Both the position numbers and the translations under genes were made by a program. A stretch of DNA of 64,000 bases. It comes from an uncultured bacterium (GTDB taxonomy: Bacteria > Acidobacteriota > Thermoanaerobaculia > Multivoradales > J023). The stretch is taken from NCBI GenBank assembly GCA_965371445.1, contig CBDUYN010000012.1:10878-74877 (forward strand), given 5' to 3'. Each line of letters opens with the position of its first letter. Position 1 is the first letter of the stretch. Below the pieces are notes generated by a model that saw only the letters and a list, made by a program, of their open reading frames with translations, was not told the origin of the DNA and ran no database searches. This document shows, in pieces, positions 7,080 to 34,861 of the stretch.

Positions 7080-7112
7080 TCCAACTGGCAAGAGCAACGA
7101 AGGAATCACGAA

Positions 7113-7491: not shown

Positions 7492-7567
7492 GGCCATGGA
7501 CGCGAGCGCCCGCACCCTCCATCACCTTGCCGATCCGCTCGTGGCTGGTGATCACGAACTTCGAACC

Positions 7568-7906
7568 TCACTCGTCGTCGATCATGGCCCGCAGCCGGAC
7601 CAGCAGCTCAGGGAGCTCGTCATTCGCGGTCTTCCAGACGATGTCGTGATTGACGTCGAAGTAGGCGTGAATCAGACGGTTGCGCATCGACACGATGAGC
7701 GGCCACGGAATGTCCGGCGCCTCGTTTCGCGCCCCCTCGGAAAGCTGGCCCGCCGCCTCGCCGATGACCTCGATCGCGCGCACCAGTGCGAAGAGGAGCA
7801 TTCGGTCGGAGTCCAGATCCGCGCGCTGGCGGCCCGAAACGAACTCCAGCGCCGTCTCTGCCGCCTCGATCATGTGCAGCAGCCGGACTCGGTCCTCAGG
7901 CTGCAT
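7568..7906 (-). CDS. hepT: HepT-like toxin (DUF86, HEPN-fold) of a HepT/MntA toxin-antitoxin pair
   Basis: 112 aa with an R-x4-HAY-type HEPN motif ([16 protein letters not shown]). Its ATG overlaps the last codons of the upstream mntA gene. Confidence 0.8.
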
Positions 7907-8195
7907 ACTGCACCTCGGCCGAGCGAACCACCTCGGCTCGGAAGTGGCGGCTCAGATCTTGAGCGGTACGCAGGTCTACCTGGCGGCCGCCCAGCAAAGC
8001 CGTTAGCTCCGCCTCAATGGCCGCCAGTCCCAGCAGCCCGGGCGCCGCGCCAGGCTCAAACTCCACCAGCAGATCGACGTCACTGTCCGGCCGATCCTCG
8101 CCCTTCAGCACCGAGCCGAAGAGTGACAGCCGGCGGATCTGATGGCGCCGGCACAACTCAGCCAGGGCCTTCTGATCCACAGGGATTCTTTTCAT
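7896..8195 (-). CDS. mntA: MntA-like minimal nucleotidyltransferase antitoxin
   Basis: 99 aa with the pol-beta NTase motif [22 protein letters not shown]. Lies immediately upstream of hepT and overlaps it. Confidence 0.8.
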
Positions 8196-8351
8196 ATCGT
8201 CGACCTCTCGTCACAGCAGATCTGATGGCGCCGCCCGCGGCGTCTCGGTACTTTCCCGCGCCAGCCGGGAGACCTCCGGCCAACTCACCAGGCCATTGTA
8301 GGACAGCGTTTCCTGCGCGCAAACTCTCGATCGCTTAGAAGAGAGACGAAG

Positions 8352-9233: not shown

Positions 9234-11242
9234 CCGCCTCCGTCGAACGCTTCGAGCTGTCGGCGGTCGACCTGCCGTTCCGGGTGTCGTTCAAGCACTC
9301 CGCCGCCGAGCGACGGCGCTCGGAGAGTCTTTTCCTCAAGTGCGTCACCGACGGCGGCCCCTTCGGGGGGACGGGTTTCGGCGAGAGCCTGCCGCGGGAA
9401 TACGTCACCGGCGAGAGCCGCGACGGCGCCTTCGAGCTGCTTGCCGAACGCGTCCTGCCGCGGCTCGCCGGCCGCTCCTTCGCCGGCCTCGCCGAGGTCG
9501 AGACCTTCCTCGGCGAGTGCGACGGCCGCGCGCCGGCGGATTGGGTCGACCCCTCGACCCCCCAGGGCGCCCGCATGAGCGCCGCTCCCTTCGAGAAAGC
9601 GACCCGCGACCCGACGGCCGCCCAGGAGGCCCTGCTGCGGCGGATGATGGCGAACAACCGCGACACCGAGTACGGCCGCGAGCACGGCTTCGCCGCGGTC
9701 CGCTCCCTCGACGACTACCGGTCGCGGGTGCCGGTGGTCGACTACGAGGACATCCGCGGGCACATCGACAGGATGACCCGGGGCGAGAAGGGGGTGCTGA
9801 CCGACGAGGACCCTGTGCTCTTTGCCCAGACCTCGGGCACCACCGGGACGCCGAAGTACATCCCGGTCACCCCCACTTGCCAGCTAGGCGGCGGCATGAC
9901 CACCTGGCTGCACTACGCCCGCCGCGATCATCCGGGCATGTTCCGCGACAAGATCGTCACCATCGTCTCGCCGGCGATCGAGGGCCATACCGAGGGCGGG
10001 CTGCCCTTCGGCTCGACCAGCGGCATGGTGGTCAAGGAGATGCCGAAGATCGTGCAGTCGGCCTACGCCGTGCCCTACGACGTCTACGAGATCCACGACT
10101 ACGAGGCCAAGTACTATGCCCTGCTGCGGCTCGGCCTCGGTCGCAGCGTCAGCTTCATCGGCACCGCCAACCCGTCCTCGATCCTCAAGCTGGCGGAGAT
10201 GGCCGACGCGAATGGCGAGCGCTTGATCCGCGACCTGCGCGACGGCACCCTGAGCGACGAGGTCGAGATCCAGTCCGAGGTGCGGCGGGTGATCGAGGGA
10301 ATGATCCGCCCCGATCCTGGGCGCGCTGGCGAGCTTGAGGCGATGCGCGGGCGCCGCGACGGCAAGCTGCTGCCCGCCGACTACTGGCCGCACATGGCGC
10401 TGCTCGGCTGCTGGAAGGGCGGCACGGTCGGCGCCTACGTCGACAAGCTGGGCGCCTGGTACGACCCGAACCAGCAGGGCATGGTGCCGGTGCGCGACAT
10501 GGGCTACCTGGCGTCCGAGGCGCGGATGTCGATTCCGGTGTCGGACGACGGCGCCGGCGGGGTGCTGACCATCCACCTCAACGTCTTCGAGTTCGTGCCG
10601 GTGGAAGAGGTCGACGACCGGCCCGACGAGCCCGGGAGCTGGAGCTTCCTGGGCGCCACCGAGCTCGAGATCGGCCGCGACTATTACGTTTTCGTCACCA
10701 CCACCGGCGGTCTCTACCGCTACGACATGAACGACGTCGTCGAGAGGGTCGACACCTACAACGCCACCCCGGTGATCGTCTTCCGCCGCAAGGGCCGGGG
10801 AATGACCAACCTCACCGGCGAGAAGCTGTCGGTCAACCAGGTGATCGCGGCGATGGGAAAGGCCGGCGAGGCAGTGGGTGTGGGCGTCGGCCACTTCCGC
10901 GCCGAGCCCGATGTTTCCCGCTCGCTCTACGTCTTCAAGGTGGAATTCGAGAGCGCGCTACCGGCGGAGAAGCGCTTCGACTTCCTGGGCCGGCTCGACG
11001 AGTCCCTTGGCGAGCTCAACATCGAGTACCAGGCCAAGCGCGCCAGCGGCCGGCTCGGACCGCCGGTCCTGCAGGTGATGCGGAGCGGCTGGTACGAGCG
11101 CGGCAAGCAGAGCCTGGTCGCCGAGGGCAAGCGCCTGTTCCAGGCCAAGACCGTGCTCCTCGACGCCAAGAGCGGCTACCGCCCGGAGCCGGACGAGCTC
11201 GAGGCGGAGGTAGGCCTGGTGAAAGGTCGTGGAGTACAATGA
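9230..11242 (+). CDS. GH3-family acyl-acid amido synthetase / adenylating enzyme with an N-terminal ~110-aa enolase-superfamily (MR/MLE N-terminal capping domain)-like extension
   Basis: GH3 core starts around residue 115 (NNRDTEYGREHGF...VPVVDYEDIRGHIDRMTRGE...FAQTSGTTGTPKYIPVT...). The N-terminal 110 aa (FELSAVDLPFRVSFKHSAAERRRSESLFLKCVTDGGPFGGTGFGESLPREYVTGES...LPRLAGRSF) matches the MR_MLE_N pattern (PL..PF, tDgG..G.GE, tGEs, P.L.G). No stop separates the two parts. Confidence 0.7.
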   Translation: MTASVERFELSAVDLPFRVSFKHSAAERRRSESLFLKCVTDGGPFGGTGFGESLPREYVTGESRDGAFELLAERVLPRLAGRSFAGLAEVETFLGECDGRAPADWVDPSTPQGARMSAAPFEKATRDPTAAQEALLRRMMANNRDTEYGREHGFAAVRSLDDYRSRVPVVDYEDIRGHIDRMTRGEKGVLTDEDPVLFAQTSGTTGTPKYIPVTPTCQLGGGMTTWLHYARRDHPGMFRDKIVTIVSPAIEGHTEGGLPFGSTSGMVVKEMPKIVQSAYAVPYDVYEIHDYEAKYYALLRLGLGRSVSFIGTANPSSILKLAEMADANGERLIRDLRDGTLSDEVEIQSEVRRVIEGMIRPDPGRAGELEAMRGRRDGKLLPADYWPHMALLGCWKGGTVGAYVDKLGAWYDPNQQGMVPVRDMGYLASEARMSIPVSDDGAGGVLTIHLNVFEFVPVEEVDDRPDEPGSWSFLGATELEIGRDYYVFVTTTGGLYRYDMNDVVERVDTYNATPVIVFRRKGRGMTNLTGEKLSVNQVIAAMGKAGEAVGVGVGHFRAEPDVSRSLYVFKVEFESALPAEKRFDFLGRLDESLGELNIEYQAKRASGRLGPPVLQVMRSGWYERGKQSLVAEGKRLFQAKTVLLDAKSGYRPEPDELEAEVGLVKGRGVQ

Positions 11243-11346
11243 CGAACGTCACGCCTTGCCAGGCCCCCTTGACCATCGCTTCCGCACTCCTCTTCGAGCG
11301 CATCGTTGCGCTCGGCACCTCTCAACCTCCAAGAAGGAGAAAAGAA

Positions 11347-11874
11347 ATGAAGAAAACGACATGCTTGTTCCTCCTCCTCGCCCTGCTGTGTGTGGCGAGC
11401 TCGTTTGCCGGGATCTCAGTGGATCACGACAAGAACGCCGACTTCTCGAAGTACAAGACCTTCACCATCAGGGAAGCGACGCCGGCGATCAATCCGCTGA
11501 TGCGCGAGCGGCTCGTCAAGGCGATCGAGGAGGGCCTCACGGCGGAGGGTCTCACGAAGGCCGACGACGGAGCGCACCTCGAGGTCGTCATCCACACCTC
11601 GCTCGAAAAGGAGATGCACATCACGGCCGACGACTGGGGCTACGGCGGCTATCGCGGCTGGCGCGGTTGGGGCGGCTGGGGTACGACGACCGTCGACGTC
11701 CAGAACGTCGCCGTGGGCACCCTGATGCTCGACATGGTCGAAACCGCTTCGGACAAGCTGGTGTGGCGCGGCATCGCGACCGACTCGATCCCCAAGAAGA
11801 GCGAGAAGCTCGAGAAGAAGGTCTACAAGGCCGTCGACAAGCTCTTCCGGCATTTTCCGCCGGAGGCGGAATGA
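11347..11874 (+). CDS. DUF4136-family secreted lipoprotein, copy 1 of 3
   Basis: Signal/lipobox (MKKTTCLFLLLALLCVASSFAG), family N-terminal signature (VDHDKNADFSKYKTFTI), RBS aaggag upstream. Paralogues at 53743..54222 (-) and 56107..56670 (+). Confidence 0.6.
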   Translation: MKKTTCLFLLLALLCVASSFAGISVDHDKNADFSKYKTFTIREATPAINPLMRERLVKAIEEGLTAEGLTKADDGAHLEVVIHTSLEKEMHITADDWGYGGYRGWRGWGGWGTTTVDVQNVAVGTLMLDMVETASDKLVWRGIATDSIPKKSEKLEKKVYKAVDKLFRHFPPEAE

Positions 11875-16553: not shown

Positions 16554-19500
16554 CTACGGACGTCCTTCAGCCTGGATCATGCCATCGTGCTCAATGCGTC
16601 GTCGCCTCTGCTCCGCTCTGCGGATCTCGATCTGGGCACGTTCACGGCCGTGGCGAATCATTTCCTGCCAGCCAGGATCGGCGTCAGCCGGACAGTCGAG
16701 CGATGCGAAGGCTTCGTCCCATTGTCGCCAGTAATCCTCCCCGGTGCCTCTCCAGACATGGCCCTCGGAGTACGCAGCTCCCGCTACCTCCTGGGGTCTG
16801 AAGTCTCCACGAAGAGCGAGCTTCGCCAAGCCCGCCCAACTCGCTTCAGGGAGCCCCTGTAGCGGCGAGAGATGAAACTCTTTCAAATCCACTCGACGTA
16901 AGAGCCGGCGGTAAAGCTCCGCCTCGCGGCCGATCAATTGTGGCAAATAGCGGGTGAGCCTCGAGTTGGCCGCGAGGTCCGCAAGCAAGGTTTTCCTTCG
17001 CTCAGATCCGAGGAGTCCGATCACCAACTTAGCCGCCTGCCCGAGCTCTGGCGCCATCTGCGAGGTCTTGAGACCGAGTTGCGCAAGCCATTCGCAGGAG
17101 AGCTCCGGATCGGCACCCAGGAGCTCCATGAGCTGGTAAGAAGCTACGCGATTCGGTGACTCGATTTCCGTACTACGCAAAACGGCTTGCCGCCAAAGCT
17201 CTCCAAGCTCGGGACGGACCTCACCTTTGGGATCCGTCATCCATTCACCAAATGCCATGGCCAGAGCAAGCGCTGGGTCGGGATGAGCGAGAACCGCCTT
17301 CGCCACGGACATCGAGAGCTCACCACGAAGCCCCATTCCCTTGATGACGGAGGGATCGTCGGCGGCTCTCTTGAGAGCTGCTTTCAGCAGGTCTGGCGAG
17401 GGCTCTGGAAGGCGAAGAGCCGAACGTATCCCTACTTCAGCGTACGCTTCGTCGCGCAGGCAAAAGCGTACGCGATCGGCAAAGCTCGGCGACGTGCTGA
17501 GCCGGTCAAGGAACGGTGCAAGCCATAGGCTCGGTACGTTCTTTTCGGTCAGCACCTCGAACCAGAGATCCGGCTCCCGCGCTCTGACCGCCAGCATTCG
17601 ACAAACGTCAGAAACGTTGCTGAAATACCCGTCGGTGATACTCTTCGCCTCTTGGGTAAGATGGAGAAGAGTCTCGACGACCTCAGCAGGGCTCGCGTCA
17701 GCCCATTCGCCAGCCAGCGCCTCAAGCGCCGACGATTCACTCGTCAAGCACTCCGAAATTGGCGGAAAGAGGATCTCGAATCGTGGATCGGGATCCAGAG
17801 GGAGCTCGACGTCCAGTCGATCCGCCAGGCGTGCCAGAGCGGCCGAAAGGCCGATTCGGCCAGCGGCCAGCGGCGTCAGATCTCGCAACATCTCGATGAC
17901 GACCTGTTGAACGAATCGTCCCTCGTCTTCCGAGACTTTTCCCCGTGAATCGGAAAATTCGAGCCAATCCCAGAGCTCGTCACACAGTTCGGGAAATGAG
18001 ACGACTCCGGTGATTCTGAAGAGCTCGAGGGCGTCTTTCCAGACTCCACCCATTTGCTCCAGTTGAGCCTGTGGCAAGGGGCCGCGCCGGGTGGTCAGGC
18101 CGGTTCGCGTTGGATCGACGTAATCACCGTATACGCTCGGTGCCAGAGTGAGACACCCGAGGCGAAAAGCGATGGCGAAAGCTTCGGTGGATTCCGCAGC
18201 CTCCGCATGTCTGCGAGCCGCCCGAATCGCCGTATGTCGACGCTCGAGCGTCTCGCCCACAGGCTCGCAGATCCACCTCCGGAGGATATCCAGTTGAGGA
18301 CAAGCTTGGGTGGACTCCTGGCTTCGGGACGATTCAGCCTGTTCGAGCAACCTCTGAATCGTAGCTCCCGGTGTCGCGTGCAGACCCGATCGGGCGATGT
18401 CGACGAGCTCGCCCGGATAGTGCTTGAATGCCCAAAGAGCTTCCCGCTCCCCCAATCCCGCGAAGGTCCCCCAGGCCGCGCTCGCTTCCTTGCGGAGGGG
18501 GTACTTCGCCGGATCGAGCCGTCCGAGGAGCCGACACAACTCTTCGAACGGGATCCGAGCACCTCGCGCGGCGGCGGCGGCGATTTCACGGACAGCACAA
18601 TCGTAGCCGGGCGCCAAGTCCAGGTAATCGCGGTAACCCAAGCCGGTCCCCTTGTGACCGAAGAAAACCGAGGAGAGCAGGACCGAACGCAAGGCCCGAG
18701 GTTGGACCGCCAGGCAATCTCCGCCGGCTTCGGACAAGACGCCTGCCGCGGTCAGCGAAACGACGCGTTTCCGCGTCTCGAGCGGGCGGAGGTCGAGCTT
18801 CTTCCCGACTTCCTTCATCGGCATCCCACGTCGGCCACCGAGGCTGAAAACGGCGAGGAGCCCCTCTTCGTCGCGTCCTACCAGCCGACGGACGCTCCGC
18901 AAGGAGTCTCTTGTGAGAGCCTCGCCACGGAGCACCGAGAACCAGTCGCCCTCAAGCCACAACGCGGCCAGGGTCGCCGCCAGGCCCGGCTTGTTGGACG
19001 CCTGATCCACGAGCTCCAGGAGGTACTCGTCCGGTGCTTCGACACCGAGCTCCTCAAGGATCTGCTGAATCTTCCGACGAGGCAAAAGCTCAAGCGTACG
19101 AATCCTCGCTGTTGGCACGTTCAGAGCGCTGGCTACGTGGTCCCGGTGGCCTCTCCAGGTGGTTGCCACAATGGAGAACGTAGCGCCGATTCGCTGACGC
19201 AGCCCCGCCAGTCTCTCCAGCCGGGCCGGGTCGGCGTGGGCGTCATCGACAATGATCACCTCGGGCTTCTGGTCTCGGATCGCATTGGCGATCTCCTCCT
19301 CTTCCTCAGAGGCCAGGAAGAGCCCCCAACCGTCTAAAGCTAGCCGATAGAGGAGATAAGACTTGCCCGCGCCGGGCTCGCCGACCAGAATTCGGTCCTT
19401 CGAGGTGGAACGTAACCACTCGGCGTCCGCCTCCCGGCCCAGAAGCTCCGTCTCGACGAGCGGACGGCTCAGGCTTGGTGGCAAGACGGAAAGGGCCGCG

Positions 19501-19949
19501 GGTTTACCGGAAAGGTCGAGAAGATCCTGGCACCACCGGGAATTTCGATAGAGCAAAGCGGCCATCATCCGCTGCTCATAGATCTGAACGAGCGTGACCT
19601 CCAGCTCTCTGGCCCGTTCTCGGAGCTTTCGACGTTGCGGCGGTGTCAGAACGCGGCTGGTGGCTACGATGACCTTGCGGCACTCTCCTCCTGTTCGGCG
19701 GTGGCTTTCGAGGCTACGCGTCAGGTTGGCTTTGACTTGCTTCTGGGTGGTGCAGACCAAGAGTGTACCGTCGGCGACAACACCGTCCATGCCGCCGTCG
19801 TTTCCACCTGGCATCGAAACCAGGGTTGGGTAGAATTTCCGAAGAAGGTCGCCCGCACAGGCCTCAAAGAGATCGCCGTCGAGCTGGTCGCCGTCGAGCC
19901 TGGGGCTCAGCGCTTCGCGGATCTGACGGTAGAAGGGGTCTTTCACCAA
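16554..19949 (-). CDS. 1131-aa three-part protein: N-terminal Mrr-like PD-(D/E)xK nuclease domain, STAND/NB-ARC-like P-loop NTPase, and a long alpha-helical C-terminal region (Avs/NLR-like architecture)
   Basis: N-terminus SMPGGNDGGMDGVVADGTLLVCTTQKQVK fits the Mrr_cat D..D...Q.K pattern. Walker A ILVGEPGAGKSYLL, Walker B PEVIIVDDAHAD, sensor-1-like FSIVATTWRG (NB-ARC hhhTTR). About 750 aa of helical repeats follow. The region looks lower in GC than its flanks. Confidence 0.7.
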   Translation of the reverse strand: MVKDPFYRQIREALSPRLDGDQLDGDLFEACAGDLLRKFYPTLVSMPGGNDGGMDGVVADGTLLVCTTQKQVKANLTRSLESHRRTGGECRKVIVATSRVLTPPQRRKLRERARELEVTLVQIYEQRMMAALLYRNSRWCQDLLDLSGKPAALSVLPPSLSRPLVETELLGREADAEWLRSTSKDRILVGEPGAGKSYLLYRLALDGWGLFLASEEEEEIANAIRDQKPEVIIVDDAHADPARLERLAGLRQRIGATFSIVATTWRGHRDHVASALNVPTARIRTLELLPRRKIQQILEELGVEAPDEYLLELVDQASNKPGLAATLAALWLEGDWFSVLRGEALTRDSLRSVRRLVGRDEEGLLAVFSLGGRRGMPMKEVGKKLDLRPLETRKRVVSLTAAGVLSEAGGDCLAVQPRALRSVLLSSVFFGHKGTGLGYRDYLDLAPGYDCAVREIAAAAARGARIPFEELCRLLGRLDPAKYPLRKEASAAWGTFAGLGEREALWAFKHYPGELVDIARSGLHATPGATIQRLLEQAESSRSQESTQACPQLDILRRWICEPVGETLERRHTAIRAARRHAEAAESTEAFAIAFRLGCLTLAPSVYGDYVDPTRTGLTTRRGPLPQAQLEQMGGVWKDALELFRITGVVSFPELCDELWDWLEFSDSRGKVSEDEGRFVQQVVIEMLRDLTPLAAGRIGLSAALARLADRLDVELPLDPDPRFEILFPPISECLTSESSALEALAGEWADASPAEVVETLLHLTQEAKSITDGYFSNVSDVCRMLAVRAREPDLWFEVLTEKNVPSLWLAPFLDRLSTSPSFADRVRFCLRDEAYAEVGIRSALRLPEPSPDLLKAALKRAADDPSVIKGMGLRGELSMSVAKAVLAHPDPALALAMAFGEWMTDPKGEVRPELGELWRQAVLRSTEIESPNRVASYQLMELLGADPELSCEWLAQLGLKTSQMAPELGQAAKLVIGLLGSERRKTLLADLAANSRLTRYLPQLIGREAELYRRLLRRVDLKEFHLSPLQGLPEASWAGLAKLALRGDFRPQEVAGAAYSEGHVWRGTGEDYWRQWDEAFASLDCPADADPGWQEMIRHGRERAQIEIRRAEQRRRRIEHDGMIQAEGRP

Positions 19950-19970
19950 GGTAAGGGCGCTCCGTGTGGC

Positions 19971-20576
19971 TCAGAAATCCTCGTCGGCCAAGGCCAGGAG
20001 CCTGGCAAGCTCCCCTTGGAGGTCTTTGTCTCGGTCGAAGCCTCGCTGCGCGATCAGCTCCAGGGACTCTCGCGCGAGTTGAAGGTCTTCCGTCGGAGCG
20101 ACTCTCAGAAGCTGCCGAGCGTCTTCGAAGTCTCGCGGCCGGGTCTCCTTGGCCGCCAGGACCTTCAGCGCCAACAGGTGACCGACCCTCGCCACCGGGA
20201 CCACGAGTCCCGACACGAGCTCGAGCGGCTCGGCCAAGGCCGCGATTTCCGTCTCGATTCCCGAGGAGGAGAACAGGAGGTCGACGAGGATTCCCGGTCT
20301 CCCGGTCCCGGGAGCGAGCAGACGCACCGTCGAAATCCTACCGGCGGTGTGCTCCAGGACAGAGTGGATCTGGTAGCCCCTCGCCTGGAGGTCCAGAGTC
20401 GCTCTCTCGGCCTCCTGGTCCTCCGCGACGGAGAGCACGACATCGACGTCGCCGGTGGTCCTCGGCTCTGCGAGGGCCGAGACGGCCAGGCCGCCGATCA
20501 AGGCCCAGCGCAGCTTGAGCGCTTCCAGATGGGACGCCAACTGGATCAGCGCGCCTTCGACAGGGCCGATCTCCAT
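19971..20576 (-). CDS. Pol-beta-superfamily nucleotidyltransferase (~200 aa, NTase core plus C-terminal helical domain), 22 bp upstream of the STAND gene
   Basis: NTase motif WALIGGLAVSALAEPRTTGDVDVVL (G[GS]...DxD), followed by a second acidic strand, then a helical C-terminal half. A start at MEIGPVEGAL was chosen because the longer ORF start (20648) overlaps the upstream small gene. Confidence 0.6.
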   Translation of the reverse strand: MEIGPVEGALIQLASHLEALKLRWALIGGLAVSALAEPRTTGDVDVVLSVAEDQEAERATLDLQARGYQIHSVLEHTAGRISTVRLLAPGTGRPGILVDLLFSSSGIETEIAALAEPLELVSGLVVPVARVGHLLALKVLAAKETRPRDFEDARQLLRVAPTEDLQLARESLELIAQRGFDRDKDLQGELARLLALADEDF

Positions 20577-20797
20577 TGCTCCACTCTCCAGGGTGCCGGA
20601 CGGCCGGGTCCGTCCCCATGCTCCGCGCCGGGCCGTCTCAGCCGCCATTCGTGCATCAGCTTCTCGATCTCCTCGGCTCCGAGATCGGGATGGCGGCGAC
20701 GGAGGCTCTGGCGTTTCATGGCCTCGGCGGTCTGACAGAGGTCAAAGGTGAGACGCATTCGCTCGAGCACCTGGATATCTCGGTTCTTCGGTCGCAT
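20546..20797 (-). CDS. Small (83-aa) protein of unknown function; its 3' end overlaps the NTase start by ~31 nt
   Basis: ORF MRPKNRDIQVLERMRLTFDLCQTAEAMKRQSLRRRHPDLGAEEIEKLMHEWRL... Position and overlap are typical of an antitoxin / regulator partner. No recognisable domain, and the start codon is uncertain. Confidence 0.35.
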   Translation of the reverse strand: MRPKNRDIQVLERMRLTFDLCQTAEAMKRQSLRRRHPDLGAEEIEKLMHEWRLRRPGAEHGDGPGRPAPWRVEQWRSALSKAR

Positions 20798-20874
20798 GAC
20801 CCGATTCTATCGCGCTTGGGGCGATCTCTCCAGCGCCTCAAGCTTCCAGGTCGACTCAGTAGGACCCAGGTCGC

Positions 20875-23289
20875 ATGGCTCCCTTCTCCGCGACTGGGAT
20901 AGAGTCGCAGCGTCTGCTCACGAATGAACGCCCTCAGAACCCACGACCCGTGAAGGATCCTGCTTTGGACAGACCGATCTATGCCAGGACCGGAAGCCGC
21001 GCCGTCCTGTTCTTCCTCTGCGTCGTGCTGCTCGCCGGCGCCGCGGCGGCCCGGACCGTGACCGTCGCCGTCGTCCGCGACGGCCCAGCCCCCGGCCAGG
21101 ACCTTGTCGCCCGAATCCAGGAGGAGCTGCCACGGCACGTCCCGGCCGGGACCACCGTCGCCTGGAAGGAAGACCCGGCCTTCGACGCCGGCTGGGACGC
21201 GGACCGCGTCCGCGACGCCCTCAATGCCGCTCTCGCCGACCCGGACGTCGAGATTGTCCTCGCCGCCGGGGCGCTCGTCACCCTCGAAGCGGCGGGCGGC
21301 GGCGTCGAGCTGACCAAGCCCGTCGTCTCCGCCTTCGTGCAGCGCTCGAACGTCTTCCCGCTGCCCTATGCGGAAGGGGAGACACTACCCGAGAACCTGA
21401 GCTTCACCGTCCTCCCGCAGCGCTTCCGGCGCGAGGTCCGGACGTTTCAGTCCCTCGTCCCCTTCCGGAAGCTCCACGTCGTCGTCGATGCCGGCCGGCT
21501 CGCGGCTTTCGGCACGACCGAGACGGTCGCCGACTGGCTGCGCAGCGAGCTGGGGACCGAGCTCGTGACCGTCCCGGTCGCCACCGAGGGCGACCCCGAC
21601 GCCTTGGCCGGTGCCGAGGCGGTGGTGCTCGCCGCGACGCCCCGGCTGTCGCACGACGCGCGGCGCGCGCTGATCGCCGAGCTCACCCGACAAAAGGTCC
21701 CGACCTGGAGCATCGTCGGTCACGGCGACGTCGAAGACGGCGCCCTCGCGGCTTTGACCCCCGACACCACGGACCAGGTCGTCCGCCGGGTGGCCTTGAA
21801 CCTCAGCCGCCTGTTGCGCGGCGCCGCCACGACCGAGCTCCCCGTCGTCCTGACGGCCGAGTCCAAGCTGCTTTTGAACGCCCGCACCGCCCGGAAGGTG
21901 GGCTATCTGCCCGATCCGGAAACCCGCCTCTTCGCGTCGTACCTCCATCCCGAGGCCCTCGCCGAGCCGACCGAACCCCTCGAGCTGGCAACGGTCTTCG
22001 ACCTCGCCGAGAGCGGCAACAAGACCCTCCGGGTCGACGACGCGGCCTTGGAGAGCGTCCGCCAGGACGCCAAGATCGCCCGCAGCGTCCTCCTGCCGCA
22101 GCTCCGGGCCAACCTGGCGCACCTCGAGAGCGACGCCGCGATCGCCATCCCGCCCGACGGGACCCGTGGCGTCCTCTCGTTGCAGCAGCTGATCTACGAC
22201 GACCGGGCCCTCGGCAACCGCCGCGCCGCGGAACACCTGGTGAGCGGCGCCGAGCAGGACCGGGAGACGACGCGCCTAGACATCCTCGCTCAGGCCGGCC
22301 GCGCGTTCTTCCTCTTCGCCCAGGCCCAGGCGCTCTACCGGGTCGAGGCCGAGAACCTTCGCCTGACCGAGGACTTCCTGGAGCTGGCTCGGATGCGCGA
22401 GGAGGTGGGCTACTCCGGCCGCGCCGAGATCGTCCGCTGGGAAGCGACGCTCGCCCAGCAGCGCTCCGCCCTCTTTCTCGCCGTCGAGCAGGCCGAGGCG
22501 GCACGCATCGCCTTGAACCAGGTGCTCGGCATCGAGCTCGACCGGCGCTGGGAAACGCGGGACACCGACGTCGACACGGAGTCCTTCGGCTGGCTCGACG
22601 GCCGGCTGGCGGACATGGCGGAAGATTCCGCCAAGCACGCCGGTCTGCGCGAGTCCCTGGTACGCCGCGCCAAGGAACAGACGCCCGAGGCCACGGCCCT
22701 GCGCGAGGCGATCGCGGCCCAGGAGATCCGGCTCGGCGTCGCCAAGCGGCGCTTCTACGTGCCGAGCTTCCTCGCCGACGTCTCCTACACGGCGGACCTC
22801 GGCGGCGGCGACAGCGGCTTCATCGAGAGCGAGGACACCACCTCGATCTCGATCGTCGCTTCCTATCCCCTCTTCGAAGGCGGACGACGCAGCCACGACG
22901 TGACCAAGGCCGAAGCCGACCGCGACACCCTGGAGCGTCAGCTCGACCTCGTCCTTGAGCTCGTCGAAGGGCGCGCCCGCACGGCGCTCCGCCGAGTCGA
23001 GTCCTCGTTTCCACGCCTGAAGCTCAGCCGCCAGGCGGCGGCGAGCGCGGCGGAGAACCTGCGCCTCGTCCAGGACCAGTACGCCGAAGGACTGGTCAAC
23101 GTCACCGACCTCCTGTCGGCCCAGAACCAGAAGTTCGTCGCGGATCAGCTCACCACCCTGGCGCTCTACGAGTACCGCCTGAGCCTCGTCGACCTCGAAC
23201 GCGCCATCGCTTTCTTTTCCACCACCCGGACCGACGACGAACGCCGGGAGCTCGCTGAGTGGATTCACTCGGCGGCCACGAGCGAGTAA
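20875..23289 (+). CDS. TolC-family outer-membrane efflux factor with an N-terminal ~300-aa periplasmic-binding (ABC_sub_bind / PF04392-like) domain
   Basis: C-terminal half has OMF repeats (QAGRAFFLFAQAQALYRVEAENLRLTEDFLELAR..., NVTDLLSAQNQKFVADQLTTLALYEYRLSLVDLERA). N-terminal domain matches the ABC_sub_bind pattern (VTVAVVRDGP..., DVEIVLAAGALVTLEAA, KPVVSAFV, NLSFTVLP, KVPTWSIVGHGDVEDGALAALTPD, ARKVGYLPDPE). The start may be the internal GTG/TTG at 20950/20965, just before the signal-like segment RAVLFFLCVVLLAGAAAA. Confidence 0.7.
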   Translation: MAPFSATGIESQRLLTNERPQNPRPVKDPALDRPIYARTGSRAVLFFLCVVLLAGAAAARTVTVAVVRDGPAPGQDLVARIQEELPRHVPAGTTVAWKEDPAFDAGWDADRVRDALNAALADPDVEIVLAAGALVTLEAAGGGVELTKPVVSAFVQRSNVFPLPYAEGETLPENLSFTVLPQRFRREVRTFQSLVPFRKLHVVVDAGRLAAFGTTETVADWLRSELGTELVTVPVATEGDPDALAGAEAVVLAATPRLSHDARRALIAELTRQKVPTWSIVGHGDVEDGALAALTPDTTDQVVRRVALNLSRLLRGAATTELPVVLTAESKLLLNARTARKVGYLPDPETRLFASYLHPEALAEPTEPLELATVFDLAESGNKTLRVDDAALESVRQDAKIARSVLLPQLRANLAHLESDAAIAIPPDGTRGVLSLQQLIYDDRALGNRRAAEHLVSGAEQDRETTRLDILAQAGRAFFLFAQAQALYRVEAENLRLTEDFLELARMREEVGYSGRAEIVRWEATLAQQRSALFLAVEQAEAARIALNQVLGIELDRRWETRDTDVDTESFGWLDGRLADMAEDSAKHAGLRESLVRRAKEQTPEATALREAIAAQEIRLGVAKRRFYVPSFLADVSYTADLGGGDSGFIESEDTTSISIVASYPLFEGGRRSHDVTKAEADRDTLERQLDLVLELVEGRARTALRRVESSFPRLKLSRQAAASAAENLRLVQDQYAEGLVNVTDLLSAQNQKFVADQLTTLALYEYRLSLVDLERAIAFFSTTRTDDERRELAEWIHSAATSE

Positions 23290-27300: not shown

Positions 27301-27540
27301 ATGGGGAGCGGCAAGGTGCCGTTCGACGCGGTGGTCGACTCGGGCGTCAGCCGTCTGATCCCGGTGGCGATGGCGGCGGCGACGACGATCCTCGGCATGA
27401 TTCCGCTTCTAAAAGACGCGTTTTTCGTCGCCATGGCGGTGACGATCATGTTCGGCCTCGGCTTCGCCACGGTCCTGACCTTGATCGTCGTGCCGGTGCT
27501 CTACGCGATTTTCTTCAAGGTTCCCAACGTAGCGAGATGA
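24400..27540 (+). CDS. RND-family multidrug efflux permease (AcrB/AcrD/AcrF family)
   Basis: 1046 aa with the AcrB-like N-terminus (MNIAELAIRKSVITWVMTILMVVVGWMSFNNLSRLEDPEFTIKEA), 12-TM topology with two large periplasmic loops, and a conserved C-terminus (VLTLIVVPVLYAIFFKV). Confidence 0.9.
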   Translation: MNIAELAIRKSVITWVMTILMVVVGWMSFNNLSRLEDPEFTIKEAIVLTPYPGASGAEIEEEVTNVLEKAVQQMGQLLYVESRSSRGFSQIKVRIKDQYTKARLPQVWDELRRKIGDAQRQLPPGAGPSLVNDDFGDVYGVYYALTGEGYTYRELYDVAKLLQRELLQAQDVKRITFYGVQPEVIYVEMRREKMAELGVSQQEIYGALAAKNLPVTAGNINLGPEYLAVNPTGEFESEQEFGELLIAGRGTDSLVYLRDVADVRRGYREPARGYLRYDRSPAIGLAISTIDGGNVVTMGDSINDKLDEIRGEIPLGMELRPISLQNEAVKVAISGFIVNLGEAVLIVVVVLLLFMGLRSGVIIGFILLLTIMGTFIFMDMKGVVLERISLGALVIALGMLVDNAIVVVDGMRMKMEQGIDAVKAARDVVGQTSIPLLGATFVAVAAFASIGTSQDSTGEYCRSLFIVILISLTLSWLTAVTATPLLCKTFLKVKSGDGEAKDPYGAIHFRIYKRFLSASIRMRWVTVTVVVLLFALSIVGFGGVKKSFFPDSTRPQFFVDFWFPEGTHIDETSRLLERAEGFLAEQDGVMHATTMVGGGQIRFLLTYSPESAYPSFGQILIDVEDYKTIPAMTKSLQTDLEELFPEANVNVRMFVNGPSTGGKIQLRLYGPDGSELRRMATVVEEIFAADPVTKAFRNEWRDMVKVLRPQMAETQARQAGITRPMLGQAVQAAVEGTPAGVYREGDELLPIIARSPEYERVDFTNLASIQIWSPGAQRMIPLGQVVTGFEVEYEDPHVWRRDRMKMLKLHADPRYGLPSDLLARVKPKIEQALGVDARQKIGRDVAPEDWTVATIPVSDSDRIPLTKPGYSMAWGGEIEDSARSQGGLAKSLPIFFGLMVLIVIWLFNSLKRTAIIWLCVPLALIGVTAGLLMFRQPFGFMSLLGLMSLAGMLIKNAIVLIDQIDLEMGSGKVPFDAVVDSGVSRLIPVAMAAATTILGMIPLLKDAFFVAMAVTIMFGLGFATVLTLIVVPVLYAIFFKVPNVAR

Positions 27541-28247
27541 AGATGAAAACAAAGGCAACTATCCTCCTCTCCATAGTCCTCCTACTCCCGCTGGCGGCGA
27601 CGGCTCAACCGCCGAACGACCTCACGGCCGAGTCGCAAGAGCTCGCGGAGAAGATCGAGCAGTACTTCAACGCCCGCGAGCGTGAGAACGACGCGCTCGC
27701 CGAGTTCTCGCGGCTGAGCCGGCTCCTCGACGAGACCCTGGGCGACCCCCACAGCGGCCGCTCGGAGCTGATCAACCTCGACACCCAGGTGAAGGTGGCA
27801 CGTGAGAGGGCCTGCGCCTACACCGAGGAGACGGCCGAGCGGCGCCGGAGCATGTTCGAGAGCATGAAACGAGTCGCCGCCATGGTCCAAGAGCTCGAGC
27901 GGTTGGGGCTCGCGACCGACGGCTCTACCGTCGACGTCGGCGGGTGGTGGCAGGTGGAGGCCCAGCCGAGCGACGTCTGGGGCTTCCTCGAGCTGGCGCA
28001 GGACGGGATGCTCGTGACCGGCTCCTACCGTCTTTCAAACGGTTCCGAAGGCTCGATGAAGGGCACCTTCAGCGGCGGCCACCTGAAGCTGGAGATGGTC
28101 GACTCCGAACGCGGGACGGTGGGCGACGTCGAAGGCGAGATCGACGCGGAGTCCGGCGAGATCCACGGCACCTGGAGCACCCGCGAGGTCGGTTCCGGCC
28201 GTCCCGCGGCCGGCGAGTGGACGGCCCGCCGGGTGTCGATGGGTTAG
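27537..28247 (+). CDS. Secreted hypothetical protein; its start overlaps the RND stop
   Basis: Signal peptide (MKTKATILLSIVLLLPLAATAQ), then a ~210-aa soluble domain with no recognisable motifs. Confidence 0.45.
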   Translation: MKMKTKATILLSIVLLLPLAATAQPPNDLTAESQELAEKIEQYFNARERENDALAEFSRLSRLLDETLGDPHSGRSELINLDTQVKVARERACAYTEETAERRRSMFESMKRVAAMVQELERLGLATDGSTVDVGGWWQVEAQPSDVWGFLELAQDGMLVTGSYRLSNGSEGSMKGTFSGGHLKLEMVDSERGTVGDVEGEIDAESGEIHGTWSTREVGSGRPAAGEWTARRVSMG

Positions 28248-30093: not shown

Positions 30094-31539
30094 ATGATCA
30101 GAGGCGGAGTCTTGAAGATTGTCCTTGCATTGCTGCTATTCAGCTTCGGCGTGTTGCCGGGATCATCATTCGCCCAAGTTGAGAAGCCCAATGTCGTTGT
30201 GATGGTCATGGATAATCTCGGCTGGGGTGAAATTGGGGTTTATGGCGGTGGAATCCTCCGTGGGGCGGAGACCCCCCGGCTCGACAAACTTGCCGCCGAG
30301 GGCATGCGGTTTCTCAACTTCAACGTCGAGACTCAGTGCACTCCCAGTCGTTCTGCGCTGATGACGGGCCGTCACCCCATCCGATCGGGGACGACCAAAG
30401 TGGTCTGGGGTCAGCTCTACGGCATGACTCAGTGGGAAGTCACCATCGCCGAGCTGCTTTCTGAACAAGGGTACGCAACGGGTATGTTCGGCAAGTGGCA
30501 CCTCGGTGATACCAAGGGCCGCTTTCCGACAGATCAAGGGTTTGACCAGTGGTACGGGATCCCCAACACGACCGACGAGTCGCTCTATGTGGATGGCTTT
30601 CAGTTCGACCCCGAGACTCTCGAGGCGCCACACATCATGCAGAGCGTGAGGGGGAAGGCGCCCGATGAAGTGAAGGTCTACGACCGCGAGGCGCGGCGCA
30701 GAATCGACGCTGAACTAGCGCGACGCGCGATCGACTTCATGGAACGTAGCGTCGAGGCTGGTAAACCGTTCTTCGCATACGTCCCGTTCACGCTGGTGCA
30801 CGTGCCCGCAGTACCGCATCCAGACTTCGAGGGATCTACCGGGAACGGCCGCTGGGCCGATGTACTTGCCGAGTTGGATCACCGCGCTGGACAGATTCTG
30901 GACGCGATTGACGATCTCAAGGTTCGGGACAACACGGTCGTCATCTGGATGAGCGACAACGGTCCTGAGGAAATCTATCCTCACCACGGGACAGCAGGGC
31001 CCTGGCGAGGTACCTATTTCACCGCCCTCGAGGGTTCCTTGCGGGCGCCGTTCTTGATTCGTTGGCCGGGCCGGATCCCGGCAGGGTCGGTCCACAATGA
31101 GATCATGCACGTCACCGATCTCTATCCCACCATGGCGCGTATCTCAGGCGCGAAGGTTCCGACGGATCGGGTCATCGACGGTGTTGACCAATTCGAATTT
31201 CTGACAGGGCAGGCGGAGCACTCAGCTCGTGAGGGCTTCCCGGTCTACAACGGCGACAACCTGCAGGCATACAAGTGGCGGAACTGGAAATTGCACTTTT
31301 ACACACAAGAGACCATGCGCTCCGTCATCGAGCGGCCCGGTATGCCGAGGATGTACAACCTGCTGACCGACCCAAAGGAGCAATACGACTTGATCGAGAT
31401 GGGCGGAAGGGCCAGCGAGGACAACTTCTGGGTGATGCCGGTCATCAGTAAGCTCTTGGTCGATCATCAGCGCAGCCTCGCTCAGTCGCCACCGATTCCG
31501 CTCGGCACACCGGATCCGTATCTACCAGGGAAACGCTGA
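30094..31539 (+). CDS. Arylsulfatase-family (formylglycine-dependent) sulfatase
   Basis: Signal peptide, canonical CTPSRSALMTGR sulfatase signature, GKWHLG motif, RBS caggagag. Confidence 0.85.
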   Translation: MIRGGVLKIVLALLLFSFGVLPGSSFAQVEKPNVVVMVMDNLGWGEIGVYGGGILRGAETPRLDKLAAEGMRFLNFNVETQCTPSRSALMTGRHPIRSGTTKVVWGQLYGMTQWEVTIAELLSEQGYATGMFGKWHLGDTKGRFPTDQGFDQWYGIPNTTDESLYVDGFQFDPETLEAPHIMQSVRGKAPDEVKVYDREARRRIDAELARRAIDFMERSVEAGKPFFAYVPFTLVHVPAVPHPDFEGSTGNGRWADVLAELDHRAGQILDAIDDLKVRDNTVVIWMSDNGPEEIYPHHGTAGPWRGTYFTALEGSLRAPFLIRWPGRIPAGSVHNEIMHVTDLYPTMARISGAKVPTDRVIDGVDQFEFLTGQAEHSAREGFPVYNGDNLQAYKWRNWKLHFYTQETMRSVIERPGMPRMYNLLTDPKEQYDLIEMGGRASEDNFWVMPVISKLLVDHQRSLAQSPPIPLGTPDPYLPGKR

Positions 31540-31593
31540 CCGGGCATCCTGAACAGCTGTGAACCATCATCAACCAACCAACCGGAAAGAACC

Positions 31594-33105
31594 ATGAAAA
31601 GACTCACGATTCTCCTACTCCTCGTTCTTCTGACGGCCCTGCCGGCTGCGGCGCAAGACAAGCCCAACATTCTCGTCATCTTCGGCGATGATATCGGTAT
31701 GTACAACATCAGTGCTTACCACCGCGGCATGATGGGGGGCAGGACGCCCAACATCGATCGCATCGCCAACGAAGGGGCGCTTTTTACCGACTACTACGCT
31801 CAACAGAGCTGCACCGCTGGACGGGCGGCGTTCATCACCGGGCAGCATCCGTTCCGCACGGGCCTCTTGACCATCGGCATGCCGGGAGCCGACCAGGGGC
31901 TCCAGGACCAGGATCCGACCCTCGCCGAGCTGCTCAAGGAGCACGGCTACACCTCCGGCCAGTTCGGCAAGAACCACCTCGGCGACCGCGACAAGTTTCT
32001 GCCCACCAACCACGGCTTCGATGAATTCTACGGCAACCTCTACCACCTGAACGCCGAGGAGGAGCCGGAGACCTACCACTACCCGAAGGACCCCGAGTTC
32101 CACAAGAAGTTCGGCCCCCGGGGCGTGATCCACAGCTATGCCGACGGCCGCGTCGAGGACACCGGGCCGCTGACCCGTAAGCGAATGGAGAGCGCCGACG
32201 GGGAGTTTCTCGATGCTTCTCTCGACTTCATGGAGCGCGCGGTCAACGACCGCAAGCCCTTTTTCATCTGGCACAACGCGACTCGCATGCACGTCTGGAC
32301 CCGCCTCAGCCCGGAGTGGGACGGCAAGACCGGCCACGGCCTCTACGCCGACGGCATGGCCCAGCACGACCACGACATCGGCAAGCTCCTCGACAAGCTC
32401 GACGAGCTCGGCATCGCCGACAACACGATCGTGATCTACTCCACCGACAACGGTGCCCAGAAGTTCACCTGGCCCGACGGCGGTACGATCCCGTTCCGCG
32501 GCGAGAAGGGCACCACCTGGGAAGGCGGCTTCCGGGTGCCGGCGGCGGTACGCTGGCCCGGCCTGGTCAAGCCCGGCACGATCGTCAACGACATCTTCTC
32601 CCACGAAGACTGGGTGCCGACCCTGATGGCGGCGGCCGGCGATCCGGACATCAAGGAGAAGCTCAAGAAAGGCCACTCCGCCGCCGGCAAGACCTTCAAG
32701 ACCCACCTCGACGGCTACGACCAGCGGGCCGTGCTCTCCGGAGAGGGGCCCGGCGCACGCAACGAGATCTTTTATTTCGACGCGGGCGGTAACTTGAACG
32801 CCGTGCGCTATCGGGACTGGAAGGTGCACTTCACGATCATGGAGGGCGCGATCAACGAGGCGTACCGCAAGAGCCCGAGTTGGCCGCTGGTCGTCAACCT
32901 GCGTCAGGACCCGTTCGAGGTCACGCCCGACGCGGCGCTCTACACCCGCTGGCTCGGCGACCAGATGTGGCTCTTCGTGCCGGCTCAGGCCTTCGTCGGC
33001 CAGTTCCTGGCGACGTTCCAGGAGTTTCCGCCCAGCCAGGCGGTGGGTTCGCTGAGCGTCGAGAAGGTGCTCCAGCAACTGCAGACGCAGATCTCACGGC
33101 AATAG
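31594..33105 (+). CDS. Sulfatase-family protein with a non-canonical active-site signature (C-T-A-G-R instead of C-x-P-x-R)
   Basis: Signal peptide. QQSCTAGRAAFITGQHPFRTG at nt ~31810-31824. GKNHLGD, DNTIVIYSTDNG. Otherwise typical sulfatase length and motifs. Confidence 0.8.
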   Translation: MKRLTILLLLVLLTALPAAAQDKPNILVIFGDDIGMYNISAYHRGMMGGRTPNIDRIANEGALFTDYYAQQSCTAGRAAFITGQHPFRTGLLTIGMPGADQGLQDQDPTLAELLKEHGYTSGQFGKNHLGDRDKFLPTNHGFDEFYGNLYHLNAEEEPETYHYPKDPEFHKKFGPRGVIHSYADGRVEDTGPLTRKRMESADGEFLDASLDFMERAVNDRKPFFIWHNATRMHVWTRLSPEWDGKTGHGLYADGMAQHDHDIGKLLDKLDELGIADNTIVIYSTDNGAQKFTWPDGGTIPFRGEKGTTWEGGFRVPAAVRWPGLVKPGTIVNDIFSHEDWVPTLMAAAGDPDIKEKLKKGHSAAGKTFKTHLDGYDQRAVLSGEGPGARNEIFYFDAGGNLNAVRYRDWKVHFTIMEGAINEAYRKSPSWPLVVNLRQDPFEVTPDAALYTRWLGDQMWLFVPAQAFVGQFLATFQEFPPSQAVGSLSVEKVLQQLQTQISRQ

Positions 33106-33148
33106 GACGTCAAGGCAGCGATTGAACCTTGTTCAAAAAAAGGAAGAC

Positions 33149-34861
33149 ATGAGCCAAATCGATGACGACAAGCGGTGCGGCGTACGCCGCGCCGCGCTGC
33201 CACGACACCTCCGCACGTGGACCGCCCTGACGGCTTTCTTCGTCCTCGTGGGCCCCGCGGCCGCGGACGACGGCGTTGGCCGGCCGCGGCTGGTCCTTCA
33301 GATCACCGTCGACCAGTTGCGCGGCGACCTGCCGCGGCGCTTCGAGGAACGCCTCGGTCCCGGCGGTTTCCGCTATTTGCTCGAGCGCGGCCTCCATTAC
33401 GACAACGCGCATTACCAGCACGCCAACACCGAGACGGCGGTGGGACACGCCACCCTCTTCACCGGAGCGGACCCGTCGCGTCATGGTCTGGTGGCCAACG
33501 AGTGGTTCGACCAGGTGACCGGCGAGCAGGTCTACAACACCGAGGACGATCGTCATCATTTGATCGGCAAGGAACCGAAACCGCACACCGGCACCTCGCC
33601 GCGCCAGATTCTCTCCTCGACGATCGGCGACGAGCTCGTGGTGCACGGCGGAGGACGGTCGCGCGTTTACAGCGTCTCGGTCAAAGACCGCGGCGCGATC
33701 ATCCCGGGCGGCCACGCGGGGAAAGCGTTCTGGTTCTCCAAGAGCTCGGGCGAGTTCGTCACCAGCACCTACTACTACGACGCCTACCCCGAGTGGGTGA
33801 AGGCGTGGAACGCCGCCCGGCCGGCGGACGAGTATCGCGGCAAGTCCTGGACGCTGCTCCACGACCGTTCGACCTACGTCTTCGCCGATTCCGACGACCG
33901 GCCCTTCGAGGCGAGCGTCGACGCCCTCGGTCGGACCTTCCCGCACTCCCTGGGCGACGGCAGCTCGAAATACTTCTACGGCGTCCTGACCTTCACGCCG
34001 GTGGGCGACGAGCTCACCCTGAGCTTCGCCAAGGCGCTGATCGAAAACGAAAAGGTCGGCCAGGGCAAAGCCACCGACTTTCTGGCGATCAGCTTCTCGT
34101 CGACCGACTACGTCGGCCACGTCTTCGGGCCGTCGAGCCTGGAGAGCGAGGACAACGTCCTGCGCCTCGACCGGACCCTCGCCGAGCTCTTTGCCTACGT
34201 CGACGAGTGGGTGGGACTCGATAAGACCCTGATCGTCCTCTCGGCCGACCACGGGGCGCCGGAGGCACCCGAGCACATGGCCCGACTGGGGATGGAGACC
34301 GGCAGGTTTCCTCTTGACTGGTTCCAGTCCGTACCTCTGACCCAGGCGCTGGAGAAGCGCTTCGGACGCGGCGACCTGATCGCCGCCCACAGCCACCCTT
34401 ACCTCTACTTGAACCTCGAAGCGATTCGCCAGGACGCCCTCGACGTGGCGGAGGTGGAACGCTTCGTCGCCGACGAGGTCCAGAAGCTCCCTGGCATGGC
34501 CTACGCCCTGACGCGTTCGGACCTGCTCGCCGGCCGGATCGCCGACGCGCCCTTGCAGCACCAGATCCGGCGCAGCTTTCATCCCACGCGGTCCGGCAAC
34601 GTCCACCTGGTGCCGCGTCACTACTGGTACCTGCACTCGGCCAAGGAGGCCGCCACGATGGGGATCGCGGCGATCCACGGCTCGCCCTGGGCCTACGACA
34701 CTTACGTCCCGATCTTCTTTGCCGGGCCGGGCGTGCCGACAGGAACCGTCAGCCGGCGGGTCGGCCCGCACGACATCGCGGCGACGCTCGCCGCCTATCT
34801 CGGTGTCAAGCCGCCCTCGGGATCTGTCGGGACGCCTCTCGTGGAGGTTCTGAATCGCTGA
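33149..34861 (+). CDS. Alkaline-phosphatase-superfamily protein (type I phosphodiesterase / nucleotide pyrophosphatase-like)
   Basis: Signal peptide. LVLQITVDQLRGDLP (metal-binding Asp), HATLFTGADPSRHGLVAN (nucleophile region), LSADHG. RBS aaaggaag before ATG 33149. Confidence 0.75.
   Translation: MSQIDDDKRCGVRRAALPRHLRTWTALTAFFVLVGPAAADDGVGRPRLVLQITVDQLRGDLPRRFEERLGPGGFRYLLERGLHYDNAHYQHANTETAVGHATLFTGADPSRHGLVANEWFDQVTGEQVYNTEDDRHHLIGKEPKPHTGTSPRQILSSTIGDELVVHGGGRSRVYSVSVKDRGAIIPGGHAGKAFWFSKSSGEFVTSTYYYDAYPEWVKAWNAARPADEYRGKSWTLLHDRSTYVFADSDDRPFEASVDALGRTFPHSLGDGSSKYFYGVLTFTPVGDELTLSFAKALIENEKVGQGKATDFLAISFSSTDYVGHVFGPSSLESEDNVLRLDRTLAELFAYVDEWVGLDKTLIVLSADHGAPEAPEHMARLGMETGRFPLDWFQSVPLTQALEKRFGRGDLIAAHSHPYLYLNLEAIRQDALDVAEVERFVADEVQKLPGMAYALTRSDLLAGRIADAPLQHQIRRSFHPTRSGNVHLVPRHYWYLHSAKEAATMGIAAIHGSPWAYDTYVPIFFAGPGVPTGTVSRRVGPHDIAATLAAYLGVKPPSGSVGTPLVEVLNR

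Follow-up and report, generated by a model that had tools for sequence, protein, structure and literature searches.

The window analysed here is a 64,000-nt stretch of contig CBDUYN010000012.1 (positions 10,878 to 74,877; assembly GCA_965371445.1) from an uncultured bacterium of the Acidobacteriota (Thermoanaerobaculia). It contains an operon for a predicted tripartite efflux pump, in which the gene for the outer-membrane factor (OMF) is followed directly by genes for a periplasmic adaptor of the membrane fusion protein (MFP) type and for a permease of the resistance-nodulation-division (RND) superfamily (Table 1). The OMF is oversized (~800 aa), as the initial annotation of this DNA had pointed out: its open reading frame (ORF) encodes two OEP repeats preceded by a segment of ~300 residues, which we predict to be a class-I periplasmic binding protein (PBP) domain of the Venus-flytrap type. 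We regard this architecture, the location of the product and its partnership with the other components of the operon as near certain.

Table 1. Features of the fusion gene and of the operon that contains it.
Feature	Coordinates	Strand	Remarks
PBP-OMF fusion protein, whole ORF	20875..23289	+	804 codons, ATG to stop, without internal stop
Candidate start: Shine-Dalgarno-like AAGGA (20953-20957) and in-frame TTG (20965-20967)	20953..20967	+	spacing 7 nt
Predicted signal peptide, residues ~31-59	20965..21051	+	basic n-region, hydrophobic AVLFFLCVVLLAGAAAA, cleavage-type site AAA/RT; helix 39-54 in the model
PBP (Venus-flytrap) domain, class I, PF04392/ABC_sub_bind-like, residues 60-357	21052..21945	+	Pfam, profile vs PDB, AlphaFold, Foldseek
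Inter-domain linker EALAEPTEP, residues 358-366	21946..21972	+	least conserved segment, fixed length
TolC-type OMF protomer, two OEP repeats, residues 367-804	21973..23286	+	Pfam, NCBIfam, model, Foldseek
Periplasmic adaptor (MFP), 364 aa	23296..24390	+	TIGR01730, 228.8 bits (cut-off 94.9); Pfam HlyD_3, HlyD_D23
RND permease, 1046 aa	24400..27540	+	PF00873, E-value 2.5e-144
Possible fourth gene, 236 aa, predicted to be secreted	27537..28247	+	overlap of its ATG with the RND stop codon; signal peptide, N-terminal half helical, C-terminal half rich in Gly/Ser/Glu

Reading frame and translation start

The 804-aa product of the listed ORF is identical to an entry (P0001) of the public protein collection. 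The GC content of third codon positions (GC3) ranges from 0.82 to 0.98 in all 50-codon blocks from codon 51 to the end of the gene and reveals no dip at the junction of the domains, and therefore a single reading frame is coding and translated throughout. The possibility that the N-terminal region is a separate gene, with the OMF starting far downstream, had been raised with the initial annotation and is contradicted by the lack of stop codons, by the uniform GC3 and by the conservation of the junction across loci (see below).

Nonetheless, the listed ATG 20875 is probably not the true start, which we place at TTG 20965 (or at the alternative in-frame GTG 20950). This choice is preferred because codons 1-30 exhibit a GC3 of merely 0.60 (vs ~0.9 afterwards), because residues 1-36 are disordered in the AlphaFold model (predicted local distance difference test, pLDDT, <50), because of the spacing between the AAGGA and the TTG, and because the leader preceding the first β-strand would be 31 aa long if counted from TTG 20965. 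This value is the median of a set of 148 full-length family representatives (pairwise identity ≤50%), which was also used for the conservation analysis, whereas the leader of the listed ORF has 61 residues. The fusion protein would then probably comprise ~774 aa, with the PBP domain still inside the gene and the finding unaffected. The fusion protein of the window lacks a lipobox, which rules out lipoprotein anchoring of its N-terminus, and a lipobox-like string is present in merely 9 of the 148 family members. A promoter and terminator scan revealed nothing informative.

The N-terminal domain

The AlphaFold model of the domain (pLDDT 87.9; predicted template-modelling score 0.85) exhibits two lobes with alternating β-strands and α-helices, in agreement with the alternating pattern described in the initial annotation, although the limits given there (residues 30-330) have to be corrected to ~60-357. 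The accompanying assignment to PF04392 holds for the fold and for the nearest family, but not for formal membership. The sequence from the window matches the PF04392 profile with an E-value of 0.0022 and a score of 17.7 bits, below the Pfam gathering threshold of 25.9 bits, and aligns only with positions 187-278, i.e. the last third of the profile, so that by this measure it is not by itself a member of the family. Matches with E-values ≤0.01 were obtained for 11 out of 40 homologues (the best one 1.5e-9), and three of the ten homologues tested pass the threshold (P0027, 37.9 bits; P0038, 30.6 bits; P0036, 29.3 bits), with alignments that span profile positions ~42-280 of 293. Since some homologues score above the threshold and the protein from the window below it, the fusion family, as judged by Pfam scores, borders on or overlaps PF04392.

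A profile calculated from 18 N-terminal domains and compared with all PDB sequences identified 3LKV (E-value 3.1e-7), 3LFT (1.3e-5) and 6HNI (1.3e-3) as the top matches. Foldseek searches with the domain model reported entries of 3lft, 3lkv, 6hnj and 6hni as the five best structural matches (E-values 8e-13 to 2e-11; template-modelling score, TM, 0.54-0.71), while other class-I PBPs and flytrap domains of receptors begin at an E-value of 3e-6; ligand-binding domains of eukaryotic receptors are found among the weaker matches. 3LKV, 3LFT and 6HNI are the solved structures of the PF04392 proteins VC_1101, SP1069 and CD0873 (PMC10443332, PMC6816091). Because the sequence profile and the structure search independently rank the same three proteins first, kinship with PF04392 is supported, and the domain is predicted to possess the class-I PBP fold as a remote homologue nearest to this family. 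The partial, sub-threshold Pfam match of the window protein and the moderate TM to the PF04392 structures would fit a different Rossmann-like α/β domain, or a PBP family other than PF04392, but both searches place the three PF04392 proteins six orders of magnitude ahead of the other PBPs, and the homologues above the threshold cover nearly the entire profile, which makes such an assignment highly improbable. The initial annotation had been made dependent on a match of this region to a periplasmic-binding fold, and the match was found both by sequence and by predicted structure.

The outer-membrane factor moiety

Residues ~367-804 match PF02321 (OEP) twice (E-value 5.9e-41; 140.8 bits, cut-off 22). 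The NCBIfam profile TIGR01844 (type_I_sec_TolC) is aligned over positions 3-396 of 414, with a score below its cut-off (104.7 vs 225.15 bits), and the score for TIGR01845 (NodT/OprM-type lipoprotein OMF) is likewise below the required value (52.8 vs 210 bits). According to these profiles, the moiety belongs to a divergent OMF lineage and is not a TolC equivalog. The structure prediction suggested in the initial annotation yielded confident models both for the isolated domain and for the full-length protein (pLDDT 85), the latter with four predicted β-barrel strands, long coiled helices and an equatorial segment. Foldseek comparison of the C-terminal half with TolC, OprN, CmeC, OprM and CusC gave target-normalised TM values of 0.70-0.78 with E-values of ~1e-18; among the Foldseek matches there is no solved OMF chain that spans both the PBP and the OMF domains.

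When the OMF moiety alone was used as a query, fused relatives were reported with at least 187 bits, followed by a drop to ordinary ~450-aa OMFs with at most 63 bits. Short close matches from this search mostly start within the PBP domain, and P0202, in which a signal peptide is directly followed by the OMF, is the only relative of this lineage that seems to be truly unfused. The gap between 187 and 63 bits and the status of P0202 as the sole unfused relative indicate, as far as sequence comparisons can tell, an OMF lineage that is distinct and old and whose members as a rule carry the fusion. A 649-aa database protein with matches to MarR-type families (PF01047, PF12802) and to OEP (P0215) may represent one more unusual fusion of an OMF or, alternatively, a merged gene call.

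Occurrence of the fusion across genomes

The survey of the fusion across genomes that the initial annotation had called for returned 31 loci from several phyla and more than a thousand close relatives of the domain. A search with the full protein identified 40 homologues, all of them 755-831 aa long and aligned with a coverage of at least 90%, and the annotated contigs of four of them (down to 26-31% identity) all contain the genes in the order fusion-OMF, MFP, RND. The loci were obtained by scanning one genome per GTDB species with the full-length alignment as a query; they come from metagenome-assembled genomes (MAGs) of Acidobacteriota/Thermoanaerobaculia, Gemmatimonadota, Latescibacterota, Auribacterota and Zixibacteria, and from a "Deltaproteobacteria" bin. 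The matches to the N-terminal domain and to the OMF are in the same frame and a few codons apart in every locus long enough to be judged. An MFP gene is found downstream in every judgeable locus, and an RND gene in all of those except one, L019 on the Latescibacterota chromosome CP070763.1 (10306-14009), where the MFP gene (a 459-aa ORF) is followed by genes for a PhzF-like protein and a HAD-hydrolase with no RND; it is the sole locus that departs from the three-gene order.

The profile of the N-terminal domain was also scored against 1.84 billion representatives of clusters at 50% identity, of which 1,021 matched with E-values ≤1e-30 and 1,995 with E-values ≤1e-10. About three quarters of the best 150 representatives are 740-900 aa long, and all 150 are fusions or fragments of fusions. 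The 37 shorter proteins among them were considered as candidates for standalone relatives of the domain and rejected, since their sequences break off within the OMF or run into frameshift junk. Although the listed ATG is probably too far upstream and many database relatives are fragments, an annotation or assembly artefact, by which a neighbouring binding-protein gene and an ordinary OMF gene would only seem to be fused, is effectively refuted by the stop-free junction with its uniform GC3, by the in-frame junction being identical in about 30 MAG loci, independent of each other and distributed over several phyla, and by the 148 full-length representatives with their fixed linker length.

Database entries label the fusion proteins as "outer membrane protein TolC", and a few of them carry both Pfam matches in the precomputed annotation. 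Because the label reads just that, the architecture is currently invisible to annotation. We found no description of an OMF or another outer-membrane efflux duct fused to a binding-protein domain in the open-access literature and preprints, which is no proof that none exists; as far as we have seen, the architecture is recorded in databases but apparently undiscussed in the literature.

Conservation, linker and candidate cleft residues

The flytrap and the channel are conserved to nearly the same degree (mean fraction of the top residue 0.478 vs 0.474; entropy 2.29 vs 2.26 bits), and because the conservation of the PBP domain equals that of the channel, the domain appears from the alignment to be under selection. 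The distance between A354 and A378, which flank the linker, amounts to 24-25 residues in 139 of the 148 sequences, while the linker sequence itself is variable; the fixed length suggests a defined geometry between the two domains.

Loops that follow β-strands are the place where class-I PBPs hold their ligand. On such loops of the flytrap we found a number of near-invariant polar or small residues, namely D69 (143 of 148 sequences), W107 (134), S170 (135; Thr in the protein from the window), N174 (140), S279 (133) and G282 (144), and also G70, G132 and D285 (or Glu). Ligand preference in the solved proteins has been ascribed to A246 and Y262 of VC_1101 and to A268 and Q284 of SP1069 (PMC6816091). 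HMMER alignments of both chains map these selectivity positions to G282 (Gly in 144 of 148) and to the variable position 298, an assignment which is based on the 16-residue spacing that fits both chains.

The pump partners

The RND permease is most similar to the solved chains of 6vej, which we take to be TriC of TriABC-OpmH, and of MexK (E-values ~1e-177, vs ~1e-50 for AcrB and MexB), and its sequence places it, among the multidrug (HAE-1-type) RND pumps, on the TriC/MexK-like branch. Neither in the window nor in the four annotated homologue contigs is the fusion gene flanked by genes for ATP-binding cassette (ABC) transporters.

Location and possible function of the flytrap

After cleavage of the signal peptide the N-terminus of every OMF is periplasmic, and in the TolC structure 1EK9 the N-terminal helix leads from the equatorial domain to the barrel. 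This course of the helix, up from the equatorial domain, is described for TolC (PMC13082787). The segment LELATVFDLAESGN / KTLRV...SVLLPQL corresponds to the first OMF helices and starts, in the model, ~10 residues past the last strand of the flytrap. By analogy, we infer that the trimer would have three flytraps tethered around its equatorial belt, in the part of the periplasm that separates the outer membrane from the tips of the adaptor.

The initial annotation had proposed that a fused domain of this kind could gate or target efflux. Our preferred reading, to which we assign a probability of roughly 0.4, is that the flytrap may act in the periplasm as a module for ligand sensing or docking, with an influence on whether the duct opens, how stable it is or how it assembles. 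We favour this reading because the cleft loops are conserved, because the folds of substrate-binding proteins (SBPs) are reused as sensors and because the geometry is fixed. Domains of the SBP family are widely reused as sensor domains (PMC9602780), and the equatorial belt of E. coli TolC is the binding surface of the lipoprotein YbjP (PMC13082787). A small ligand would bind in the cleft between the lobes and change the conformation of the flytrap, the short rigid tether would pass this change to the equatorial domain, and through the latter the exit duct would be altered in its opening, stability or assembly, so that efflux would become ligand-responsive at the outer-membrane end. We consider it rather unlikely that the flytrap goes as far as genuine ligand sensing with allosteric gating or licensing of the duct, i.e. 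a ligand-gated TolC. In that case, a widespread family of pumps would be under post-translational control exerted at the OMF from the periplasm, and we know of no tripartite efflux system with a control point of this kind.

Several observations weigh against sensing by the flytrap. The motifs of lobe 2, YNPGEAN/YSSSEDN (E-x-N, after β6) and IDNT (D-N, after β8), are replaced by unrelated residues; we take both the E-x-N and the D-N motif to be conserved in PF04392. This replacement makes classical binding of amino acids doubtful, and the cleft may even be unable to bind any small molecule. The conserved residues may, instead, belong to a contact surface between flytrap and duct. Where the flytrap sits relative to the duct is taken solely from topology, and no allosteric role has been found for YbjP bound at the equatorial site of TolC (PMC13082787).

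A serious rival to sensing is that the PBP fold no longer binds a ligand and forms a structural collar, which would stabilise the trimer, aid its biogenesis or its positioning in the envelope (at the outer membrane's inner leaflet or at the peptidoglycan) or brace the duct, as a counterpart of the lipidated OprM-type N-terminus or of YbjP on E. coli TolC. The flytrap is attached where YbjP and lipidated N-termini act, and the role of YbjP seems to be non-allosteric and to concern stability or expression (PMC13082787). The family is practically devoid of lipoboxes, so another element may replace the anchor, and a short linker of fixed length agrees with rigid docking; the loss of the lobe-2 motifs of the solved PF04392 binders and the absence of neighbouring ABC-importer genes point in the same direction. 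Such a role is possible, but a two-lobed flytrap of 300 residues would be elaborate for a brace, the conserved polar residues occupy the canonical cleft loops, and the segment that forms the pocket wall still aligns with that of ligand-binding PF04392 proteins.

It is improbable that the flytrap captures a substrate, i.e. binds an exported compound or a periplasmic toxin and then delivers it to the pump or raises its concentration near the duct. PBPs are the classic substrate-delivery modules of ABC importers, and the constant pairing of the fusion with one RND/MFP lineage (TriC/MexK-like) would agree with a shared substrate. However, RND pumps take up their substrates at the porter domain of the permease, near the inner membrane, and the equatorial belt, which by topology is far away from this site, has no known lateral entrance in the AcrAB-TolC and MexAB-OprM structures; delivery from the belt would be geometrically awkward, and we know of no precedent.

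OMFs are generally treated as passive, substrate-blind ducts, the opening of which is controlled by the adaptor only. The presence of a conserved domain of ligand-binding type in the duct itself, in >1,000 clusters at 50% identity from Acidobacteriota, Gemmatimonadota, Latescibacterota, Auribacterota and Zixibacteria, suggests that the outer-membrane end may be a site at which efflux is sensed, regulated or anchored. The carriers of the fusion are uncultured organisms. With its separable domains encoded by one gene, the fusion provides a compact and tractable case for the question of whether signals pass through the equatorial belt of TolC-type ducts, and would extend the list of outputs that are coupled to Venus-flytrap modules.

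Comparison with known systems

The C-terminal 440 residues correspond to a complete predicted OMF protomer encoded together with an MFP and an RND protein, as in the case of TolC-family OMFs (E. coli TolC; P. aeruginosa OprM/OprN/OpmH), from which the protein differs in that a folded domain of ~300 aa follows the signal peptide and precedes the first OMF helix, and in having no lipid anchor. With the PF04392 binders (SP1069, 3LFT; VC_1101, 3LKV; CD0873, 6HNI; TrpX-type) the flytrap shares the class-I two-lobe fold and the C-terminal blocks G..A, LkG...lPV and ..iN..tA..lG. The known members of that family, free or lipid-anchored, are binding proteins for L-Trp, L-Tyr or L-Phe that serve ABC importers (PMC10443332, PMC6816091), while the flytrap described here is covalently joined to an outer-membrane channel, has no ABC importer genes beside it and exhibits altered lobe-2 motifs.

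YbjP in complex with TolC and the lipidated arm of OprM-type OMFs are likewise additional periplasmic elements outside the duct, located between the equatorial domain and the outer membrane in three copies per trimer (PMC13082787). YbjP, however, is a separate small lipoprotein with the unrelated fold DUF3828 and not a PBP (PMC13082787), whereas the element reported here is present in cis, is four to five times the size of the lipid arm and is unlipidated. Like the flytrap sensors, such as SBP-type sensor kinases of bacteria and the glutamate and GABA-B receptors, it combines a PBP fold with a membrane protein that it could control; those sensors, in contrast, have kinases, cyclases or ion channels in the cytoplasmic or plasma membrane as their outputs. 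The permease relates the pump to TriABC-OpmH and MexJK from P. aeruginosa, which use ordinary OMFs (OpmH, OprM) encoded elsewhere, TriABC having in addition two adaptor genes, whereas the operon in the window encodes a single adaptor together with its own OMF, which bears the flytrap.

Genes adjacent to the operon

The 236-aa protein encoded after the RND permease has no Pfam or NCBIfam match, and tblastn detected no match to it in any of 37 related loci, which rules out a conserved partner of the pump; the gene may be genome-specific. A gene for a DUF4136 lipoprotein-like protein is the immediate upstream neighbour of the fusion OMF in two loci (L004, 7456-7947; L006, 1592-2170), and the window contains a DUF4136 gene 9 kb upstream of it (11239-11874, + strand). 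We rejected DUF4136 as a conserved partner, since it is not found near the gene in the other related loci and the adjacency is probably a coincidence.

Just upstream of the pump operon, the region 16554-20800 (- strand) has a GC content of 0.60-0.65, compared with ~0.70 in the operon. It encodes a protein of 1131 aa that weakly matches nSTAND3/AAA, and an AbiEii-type nucleotidyltransferase toxin (19971-20648), to which the product of the ORF 20546-20797 (- strand) may be the antitoxin. The region looks like a small defence or toxin-antitoxin island.

Other features of the window

A possible second, damaged efflux or transport cluster is located at 2062-8338 (+ strand). It comprises an ABC ATPase gene (2062-2760), a ZnuA-like ORF that covers half of the profile (3454-4218, + strand) and a weakly MFP-like ORF (5407-6264) that overlaps, in another frame, a short OEP ORF of 317 aa (6126-7079, + strand); the half-covered ZnuA profile and the overlap of the MFP-like and OEP frames suggest frameshifts or pseudogenes. 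The ORF at 8915-11242 (+ strand) encodes a GH3-family protein (acyl-acid amido synthetase-like), in the listed version with ~225 unmatched residues preceding the GH3 N-terminal domain.

At 44551-48422 (- strand), full-length genes for two DUF3604 paralogues (643 and 636 aa, each with an E-value of ~1e-248) lie in tandem and adjoin genes of the sulfatase family (30094-33105, 48505-50196) and a gene of the phosphodiesterase family (33122-34861). A 1090-aa ORF at 40456-43728 (- strand) with weak matches to AA_permease, Usp and DUF389 encodes an unusual multi-domain membrane protein, and the product of 35554-37743 (- strand) is a patatin phospholipase with a POTRA domain.

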